Notes under the pieces: generated by a model
The model's database searches: none
Told to the model about the DNA's origin: nothing
The model's input: only the letters and a program-made list of their open reading frames with translations
Position numbers and translations under genes: made by a program
Shown here: positions 18,049-18,394 of the stretch, piece after piece
How the letters are laid out: the number at the start of each line of letters is the position of its first letter
Numbering within the stretch: the first letter of the stretch is position 1
Source of the DNA: Escherichia coli
Lineage (GTDB): Bacteria > Pseudomonadota > Gammaproteobacteria > Enterobacterales > Enterobacteriaceae
Reading direction: 5' to 3' (one strand)
Length of the DNA: 32,432 nt
Assembly (NCBI RefSeq): GCF_003334255.1
Contig: NZ_QOWU01000058.1

Positions 18049-18394
18049 TTTTGTATACCTGTATTAAACCGGGGAAATGCTCATCTTAACCCTGTTTACC
18101 CGGAGAGTTGATGCAGATTGCCAGTGGCATGATTTTATACAGATATTTTATTCTTTTACATGAAATAAACCAGCATACCATTTGAGCGATCGCCCGCTGT
18201 TCCCCCATACTGTAAAGCCGGAGACATGCTCCGGCTTTACAGTATTACTGAGAATACACCCATCAAGCATAATCGAAGGTTCAATATCGCCCCTTTTTGA
18301 TCGCCAGCGATTCGTCACCGTGCAGACGGTTGCCGTCACTCACTAAATTATGGGGGACAGTGAACAACAGGTTGGCTCACTGGCAAGAACCCGA

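Follow-up and report, generated by a model that had tools for sequence, protein, structure and literature searches.

A perfect hairpin upstream of mtnR (yjhU) in Escherichia coli, which looks like a terminator-like quasi-palindrome perfected at the cost of its U-tract

The window analysed here, a stretch of 32,432 nucleotides (32.4 kb) of Escherichia coli DNA, carries on its minus strand, in this order, the genes yjhI, yjhH, yjhG and yjhF, a hairpin, and yjhU. The genes flanking the hairpin, yjhF (18395-19744, a sugar-acid transporter gene) and yjhU (17062-18048, a regulator gene), were assigned by identity to the annotated K-12 records, and the spacer between them is 100% identical to that of K-12; the context given in a first-pass annotation of this DNA, with the hairpin downstream of yjhF and upstream of yjhU on the minus strand, is consequently right. 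YjhU was recently renamed MtnR, which represses the DHAP-shunt operon (PMC12632272), and its gene is convergent with the plus-strand mtnK-mtnA-ald2-transporter genes (12857-17021) across another hairpin (17026-17049), which is the convergent terminator hairpin between the DHAP-shunt transporter gene and yjhU. Genomic SELEX with RpoD has located a holoenzyme site in the yjhU-yjhF spacer, and the sequence TTAAGA-15-TTTAAT was assigned to yjhU (PMC3946193). This promoter-like site (18063-18089, minus strand), recognised from SELEX, sequence and conservation, lies 118 nt downstream of the hairpin of the spacer, within a block that is nearly invariant among the alleles described below.

The hairpin itself is found 150 nt past the yjhF stop codon. 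Just past that stop (18358-18382, minus strand), there is a degenerate first hairpin, a feature of the yjhF module that is kept in other genera. For instance, a hairpin without a T-tract (CAGTGAACCG...CGGTTCACTG) lies right after the yjhF stop in Citrobacter, Klebsiella indica and Kosakonia, and some of the changes in other genera affect both of its arms (loci L011, L012, L013 and L033, at about 5360-5390), while it is degenerate in E. coli. The yjhF-yjhU spacer of K-12 is, therefore, not featureless, as it contains the remnant of a small ORF (see below), a very stable hairpin and the mtnR promoter block.

A 14-bp perfect inverted repeat had been described in this spacer. The repeat is real, and its arms are 3 nt longer on each side, hence 17 nt (18207-18223, ATACTGTAAAGCCGGAG, and 18229-18245, CTCCGGCTTTACAGTAT), 100% complementary and separated by the 5-nt loop ACATG. 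Read on the minus strand, the whole element (18207-18245; 4520483-4520521 in MG1655) is the 39-mer ATACTGTAAAGCCGGAG-CATGT-CTCCGGCTTTACAGTAT. With 17 bp, it is the longest perfect short-loop hairpin of the window, where the runner-up has 12 bp, while the maximum in 100 dinucleotide-preserving shuffles of the window ranged from 8 to 11 bp. Folding of the 39-mer as RNA gives -27.4 kcal/mol for the minus strand and -28.2 kcal/mol for the plus strand and, when the hairpin is placed in a 96-nt context, the folding z-scores are -5.5 and -6.3. The stem has a G+C-rich inner part (18217-18235 with the loop, minus strand), GCCGGAG/CTCCGGC, which forms a 10-bp core together with the flanking AAA/TTT and is followed on both strands by TTTACAGTAT, so that three T's lie inside the outer stem. 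On the minus strand, this 3' tail of the inner stem occupies 18207-18216; relatives have TTTTTAGCAT instead, and each of the three bases that differ completes a Watson-Crick pair with the 5' arm. The hairpin is immediately followed on its 3' side (18202-18206, minus strand) by a run of five G's, the length of which is four, five, six or seven among strains and alleles. A scan of 16900-19900 against Rfam at E<=10 returned only noise, with no match to the hairpin, and a full-text literature search for the hairpin sequence found no paper.

In several respects, the element resembles the intrinsic terminators of Enterobacteria. Placed just past the 3' end of a gene and before the next promoter, it has on the sense strand a G+C stem of 7 bp (GCCGGAG/CUCCGGC, -11.7 kcal/mol) with a 5-nt loop, sizes within the canonical ranges of about 5-14 bp and 3-8 nt, and the stem is preceded by an A-run and followed by a T-run; moreover, the allele of Citrobacter sp. 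On2M has a T5 tail, and identical cores found elsewhere have long T-runs. By contrast, the G+C stem of E. coli has only three U's after it; the seven bases beyond these take part in the extended stem. The E. coli tail, UUUACAGU, lacks the five or more U's expected in the eight positions right after the stem, and a consensus terminator scan gives no call, whereas a U-rich tract is present in the On2M allele (UUUUUAGC). When scored with a formula of the d'Aubenton Carafa 1990 type, the E. coli hairpin has negative values, just below the threshold, on both strands (-10.7 sense and -5.7 antisense), while the On2M orthologue, GCCGGAG-CATGC-CTCCGGC-TTTTTAGCAT, reaches +11.8 and is a predicted terminator. 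The Klebsiella and Salmonella alleles have poor terminator scores. The earlier statement that no T-tract follows the repeat stands, then, for the full 17-bp stem, with the scan giving no call, but it misses the three T's that follow the inner stem, inside the outer one. Similarly, it was claimed that the element is not a classical intrinsic terminator, which is correct for the E. coli allele, with its negative score and no call, although this allele is kin to classical-looking ones, such as the orthologous CTCCGGC-TTTTTAGCAT.

Bidirectional terminators, made up of an A-tract, a stem and a U-tract, are known from full-length RNA profiling. The hairpin is like them in being fully symmetric, with the same stem and the same tail on both strands. 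However, such terminators lie between convergent units, while yjhF and yjhU have the same direction, that of the minus strand; at this locus, the true terminator between convergent units is the hairpin at 17026-17049.

No RNA 3' end is listed between MG1655 4520475 and 4520530 in the published Term-seq (PMC7815308) or TRS (PMC10687069) tables. This record must be considered silent rather than negative, because a 3' end for yjhF is likewise absent from these tables and the gene may not be expressed under those conditions. The main Term-seq 3'-end list has nothing between 4520003 and 4528112 (PMC7815308), and neither yjhF nor yjhU is mentioned in the SMRT-Cappable-seq and TERMITe supplements. 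The TRS data do place a yjhU 3' end at MG1655 4519295 (PMC10687069), which corresponds to position 17019 of the window, 7 nt past the 17026-17049 stem. Additionally, there are Term-seq 3' ends at MG1655 4520003 on the minus strand (17727 in the window, inside yjhU) and at 4521428 on the plus strand (19152, antisense to yjhF), from which it follows that some antisense transcription crosses the spacer, or starts near it, in K-12.

The possibility of a REP-like element, also raised by the first-pass annotation, is refuted by the distribution of the hairpin. The 39-mer is present in 1603 of 5426 complete E. coli genomes, with one copy in each and always at this locus (984 are perfect and 619 have one mismatch), and no copy was found in the remaining 3823 with either the near or the distant search mode; the "2 places" per genome that are reported in distant mode correspond to both strands of a single palindromic site. 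There is no second copy within the window, a search for the hairpin in phages gave no match, and the matches in the plasmid collection represent the same locus only, in two large E. coli records (4.9 Mb and 0.83 Mb) and one C. freundii IncFIB plasmid. The genome-wide search for other copies, which had been proposed as a check, yields none beyond the orthologous locus. Like REP and BIME elements, the hairpin is an intergenic palindrome containing G+C and located 3' of a gene; unlike them, it is found at a single locus per carrier genome, without a REP consensus and without a family of many copies sharing one. In the C. freundii plasmid (NZ_CP099223.1, 31749-39899; locus L162), yjhH-yjhG-yjhF are followed by the perfect hairpin and a 5' fragment of yjhU. 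IS26 lies at the edge of this region, with two other genes between it and the yjh cluster and hairpin, and the xylonate cluster appears to have moved to the plasmid.

What does recur is the 10-bp core. The sequence AAAGCCGGAG-N5-CTCCGGCTTT was found in at least 108 distinct and unrelated metagenomic contexts, with unrelated loops and flanks, and 91 of these (84%) have three or more further T's on at least one side. Judged from its arrangement, the core with extra T's is the ordinary A-tract/stem/U-tract layout of intrinsic terminators, and the E. coli element is one of only five core matches without a T extension. The hairpin is an ordinary single-copy terminator-like stem-loop and not a new type of element. 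Among the metagenomic matches, there is a recurrent hairpin family, (G/A)AGG-AAAGCCGGAG-CG(A/T)CG-CTCCGGCTTT-C(C/T)TC, with an extended stem and no T-tract (twelve loci, from L042 to L143), which has the core, but not the flanks, in common with the E. coli element.

Although the hairpin had been assigned to the 3' region of yjhF, this proved wrong, as comparative data place it on the yjhU/mtnR side. In about 28 other species (Citrobacter, Kosakonia, Klebsiella indica, Phytobacter and others), the gene of the YjhF orthologue is followed, right past its stop codon, by a different hairpin, which is also where similarity to E. coli stops. In a YjhF search of genome contigs, the yjhF-hairpin-yjhU layout was found outside E. 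coli in Citrobacter sp. On2M only. By contrast, islands that lack yjhF keep the hairpin upstream of mtnR, in the order AlpA, a gene for a 197-aa protein, a YagK/YfjJ gene, a small ORF, mtnR and the DHAP operon. Such islands were found in E. coli UMB200201_11, K. pneumoniae, K. michiganensis, K. grimontii, C. braakii, S. enterica diarizonae and metagenomes; the neighbouring island proteins had no match in NCBIfam. As the hairpin is kept with mtnR in these islands, and a different hairpin follows yjhF elsewhere, we consider it part of the mtnR side and, on this comparison of loci, yjhF is the partner that was added secondarily. Outside this group, YjhU, in contrast to YjhF, has its closest relatives in Providencia, Vibrio and Proteus; in the distant mtnR loci that were inspected (Providencia and two metagenomic ones), the upstream region cannot be aligned and no analogous hairpin was seen. 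Since yjhF and mtnR belong to modules of different origin, their co-regulation should not be assumed.

Comparison of the alleles, read on the mtnR-sense strand, suggests how the perfect stem may have arisen. In E. coli and K. pneumoniae the allele is ATACTG-TAAAGCCGGAG CATGT CTCCGGCTTTACAGTAT; C. braakii has the same 5' arm as E. coli and the 3' arm CTCTGGCTTTACAGCAT; Citrobacter On2M has ATACTGATAAAGCCGGAG CATGC CTCCGGCTTTTTAGCAT; K. michiganensis and K. grimontii have ATTCTATAAATCCGGAG TATGT CTCCGGCTTTTTAGCAT; and S. diarizonae has ATTCTGTAAATCCGGAG TATGT CTCCTGCTTTTTAGCAT. The related alleles of Citrobacter, Klebsiella and Salmonella form a weaker, imperfect stem that is followed by TTTTT. 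The tail TTTTTAGCAT is common to the three most divergent lineages (Klebsiella, Salmonella and On2M), TTTACAGCAT is found as an intermediate in C. braakii, and E. coli has TTTACAGTAT. The differences of the E. coli tail are clustered and affect exactly the three positions that were not in Watson-Crick pairs with ATACTGTAAAG of the 5' arm, each of them to the pairing base, so that the final tail is the reverse complement of ATACTGTAAAG; this removed two of the five U's. For three substitutions in seven positions, the probability that all of them produce pairing by chance is roughly (1/35)(1/27), that is, about 1e-3.

The series TTTTTAGCAT to TTTACAGCAT to TTTACAGTAT, with its imperfect relatives and its clustered changes that raise complementarity, has the features of a quasi-palindrome. 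Hotspots of template-switch mutation at quasi-palindromes in E. coli have reportedly been described by the Ripley model and by work of the Lovett laboratory. The hairpin resembles them in that the inverted repeat is imperfect in relatives and clustered changes, including an adjacent TT-to-AC change, complete its complementarity in E. coli. It differs in being a natural fixed outcome deduced from alleles and not an observed mutation; furthermore, selection for pairing could yield the same pattern, and the direction of change hangs on the root of the series. In an mtnR tree rooted with an outgroup, On2M, with its T5 tail, takes the basal position; however, this tree and the hairpin alleles disagree and, as the region is a recombinant mosaic, the series has an uncertain root. 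With this proviso, the hairpin looks like a perfected quasi-palindrome that lost its U-tract as its arms became matched, and the pattern is the expected signature of either template-switch correction or compensatory selection. The hairpin and the next 50 nt or so (about 18150-18245) make up a patch of about 95 nt that occurs in two haplotypes differing by about 14% (loci L172 and L164), on mtnR backgrounds that are only 0.2-0.5% apart. These haplotypes could be a consequence of short-patch recombination or of local hypermutation.

The evidence that the structure is under selection is mixed. E. coli and On2M share all 20 stem bases of the 10-bp core, although the adjacent 149 nt (18246-18394) are 15% divergent, and the chance of 20 unchanged bases is about 0.04. 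On the other hand, the patch of the hairpin varies more than any other part of the module, which is otherwise nearly identical. For instance, C. braakii and K. michiganensis differ at 2 of 987 positions in mtnR, at 7 of 39 in the hairpin and at 5 of 52 in the stretch just after it. Across nine alleles, a single pair shows a double change (GC/GU/AU), while six pairs depart by mismatches only; covariation is not above that of shuffled alignments, 84 of 500 of which reached the observed score. Across these nine alleles, the pairing is thus not maintained by compensatory changes in the way expected of a conserved structured RNA, and Rfam gave no match. The folding energies of the alleles range from -30 to -12 kcal/mol, those of Klebsiella and Salmonella being weak (-12 to -15 kcal/mol). 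Within E. coli, a mismatch allele is present in 619 of the 1603 carriers (39%). In the two genomes of this type that were read, THO-006 and SF-166, a C>T change at 18218 leaves the G+C stem of the sense strand with an A.C mismatch and makes the fold less stable (-20.2 instead of -27.4 kcal/mol).

The small ORF of the islands deserves separate attention, as it runs through the hairpin. In the islands without yjhF, an ORF of 66 or 67 codons with the start AAGG(A/T)G-N5-ATG is intact in E. coli, K. pneumoniae, K. michiganensis, K. grimontii and S. diarizonae. In several genera, it is found in CP4-like islands between mtnR and the YagK/YfjJ gene (for instance, at 8484-8687 of locus L137 and at 5001-5201 of locus L164), and its identical product is indexed in 1261 blocks of an assembly collection. 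The window and K-12 retain a remnant of it (about 18148-18350, minus strand), truncated at the 5' end and frameshifted, with the hairpin in the 3' half of the ORF. The product has no Pfam or NCBIfam match, and the ORF is not annotated in UMB200201_11. Its two parts differ in how they change: the 38 codons of the 5' part show three synonymous and one or two nonsynonymous changes, while, from the hairpin onward, all 9-10 substitutions are nonsynonymous, with no synonymous ones. As regards the G-run, four G's are found in B1.H1.1 and Klebsiella, five in the window and K-12, six in locus L043, UMB200201_11 and C. braakii, and seven in locus L137 and K. pneumoniae. Alleles with four or seven G's keep the frame, while those with five or six, as in C. 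braakii, UMB200201_11, the window and K-12, shift it.

Tentatively, we favour the interpretation that the hairpin is a leaky terminator and, at the same time, an RNA hairpin protecting 3' ends, which shields the mtnR promoter from read-through out of yjhF and whose symmetry is a mutational by-product. At the outer edge of the mtnR/DHAP-shunt module, any minus-strand transcript leaving yjhF would form an RNA hairpin with a 17-bp stem of very high stability. This could act as a factor-independent terminator, a leaky one because its inner stem, GCCGGAG/CUCCGGC, has only UUU after it, and could also block 3'-to-5' exonucleases and, thereby, fix the 3' end of the yjhF mRNA. Termination and exonuclease blocking would together keep transcription of the xylonate operon out of mtnR. 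As for its origin, we infer an ancestral, imperfect terminator-like hairpin whose tail, TTTTTAGCAT, was "corrected" to match its 5' arm, either through a template switch or through compensatory change; this correction to TTTACAGTAT would have lengthened the stem and destroyed the U-tract. Among the roles suggested by the first-pass annotation, that of a hairpin for RNA stability or processing would be the most plausible.

Nearly as likely, in our opinion, is that the hairpin is a functionless relic, that is, neutral DNA in the decayed 3' half of the small ORF or in spacer, perfected by a template switch and kept only by descent, whose effects on RNA are incidental and unselected. The variability of the patch compared with mtnR, the many mismatch alleles within E. 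coli and beyond, the lack of covariation, the slippage of the adjacent G-run from four to seven, the lack of a mapped 3' end in the Term-seq and TRS tables and the decay of the surrounding ORF in the window would all be expected of such a relic. Nevertheless, the inner core is unchanged between E. coli and On2M next to diverged sequence, the site, with a co-directional gene before it and a promoter immediately after, is one where an insulating hairpin would be useful, and a hairpin of -27 kcal/mol in a transcript has physical consequences, whether selected or not. It is unlikely that the hairpin has to be understood, instead, as part of a translated 66/67-codon gene or leader ORF, the translation of which would modulate read-through into mtnR, the window carrying a pseudogene remnant. 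Such a proposal agrees with an ORF that is intact, with its start, in several genera, with the mostly synonymous changes of the first 38 codons and with the frame kept by the alleles of four and seven G's, but the exclusively nonsynonymous changes past the start of the hairpin, the shifted frame of the other two alleles, the lack of family matches and annotation, and the presence of a promoter-like site for mtnR itself, downstream of the ORF, speak against it. More doubtful still is the related idea that the ancestral hairpin and U-tract were the terminator arm of a translation-sensitive leader, in which the passage of upstream transcription into mtnR would depend on ribosomes translating the ORF from its strong ribosome-binding site, or its variant in which the small protein is diversifying. 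If this variant, with diversifying selection on the C-terminal half of the protein, were true, the hypervariable 95-nt patch and the in-frame alleles of four and seven G's would be functional and not neutral.

Other explanations seem improbable, to different degrees. The lambda tI/sib retroregulator has a terminator-like inner hairpin within a longer duplex that is formed only in read-through RNA, and typical E. coli substrates of RNase III are about 20 bp long. The hairpin, a perfect 17-bp duplex in a 3' UTR, has a similar nested arrangement, and it might be processed, by RNase III or otherwise, so that yjhF transcripts reading through it are destabilised in a retroregulation-like manner. We give this little weight, as the long stem is missing from most alleles outside E. 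coli and is shorter than those typical substrates. Slightly less credible is an operator for MtnR (as autoregulation), YjhI or a LexA-like protein, which the perfect dyad symmetry and the outer bases (TACTGT...ACAGTA), resembling LexA half-sites, could evoke. The consensus of LexA is CTGT-N8-ACAG, however, and in the hairpin the CTGT and ACAG halves are 25 nt apart, not 8; furthermore, the outer arms vary among alleles. The half-site TACTGTAAAG is also absent from the promoter region of mtnK, which is controlled by MtnR and where CAAAT-N8-ATTTG has been proposed as the MtnR site (PMC12632272), and what the two promoter regions share is a different 11-mer, ATTTTATACAG. The protein binding site suggested earlier is, therefore, unsupported. 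Least probable of all is membership in a repeated or mobile palindromic family (REP/BIME-like, the end of a MITE, an IS target or an att site). This would fit with a rearrangement breakpoint that lies, in strain 2452, exactly at the foot of the hairpin, but not with the single copy in each carrier genome, the lack of phage matches, the restriction of plasmid-collection matches to the same locus or the metagenomic matches, which have only the generic 10-bp core in common. The 2452 junction itself is a plain deletion with a 2-nt TA microhomology, and its other end falls within a terminator hairpin upstream of agn43, in the left arm. A role of the hairpin in recombination or integration was considered on account of this strain and dropped, as the junction is that of an ordinary microhomology deletion; both of its ends are at hairpins (L002 5990-6003; L038 2813-2850).

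For annotators of K-12, it also follows that a terminator altered recently can present itself as a hairpin lacking a U-tract; for general biology, little is at stake here. If the template-switch explanation is true, the locus would offer a clean natural case of a quasi-palindrome perfected at the cost of the U-tract of a terminator, which would be a caution for terminator predictors and a case for studies of mutational mechanisms.

Finally, the 11-mer ATTTTATACAG mentioned above is found in the window at 18132-18142, in the block upstream of mtnR, and at 12745-12755, in the promoter region of mtnK, while the chance expectation for such sharing is about 0.04. On the mtnK side, it sits just upstream of the semi-palindrome CAAAT-N8-ATTTG (12778-12795), which has been put forward as the site of MtnR. 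ATTTTATACAG may be regarded as a candidate MtnR operator, which would be a hint of autoregulation.
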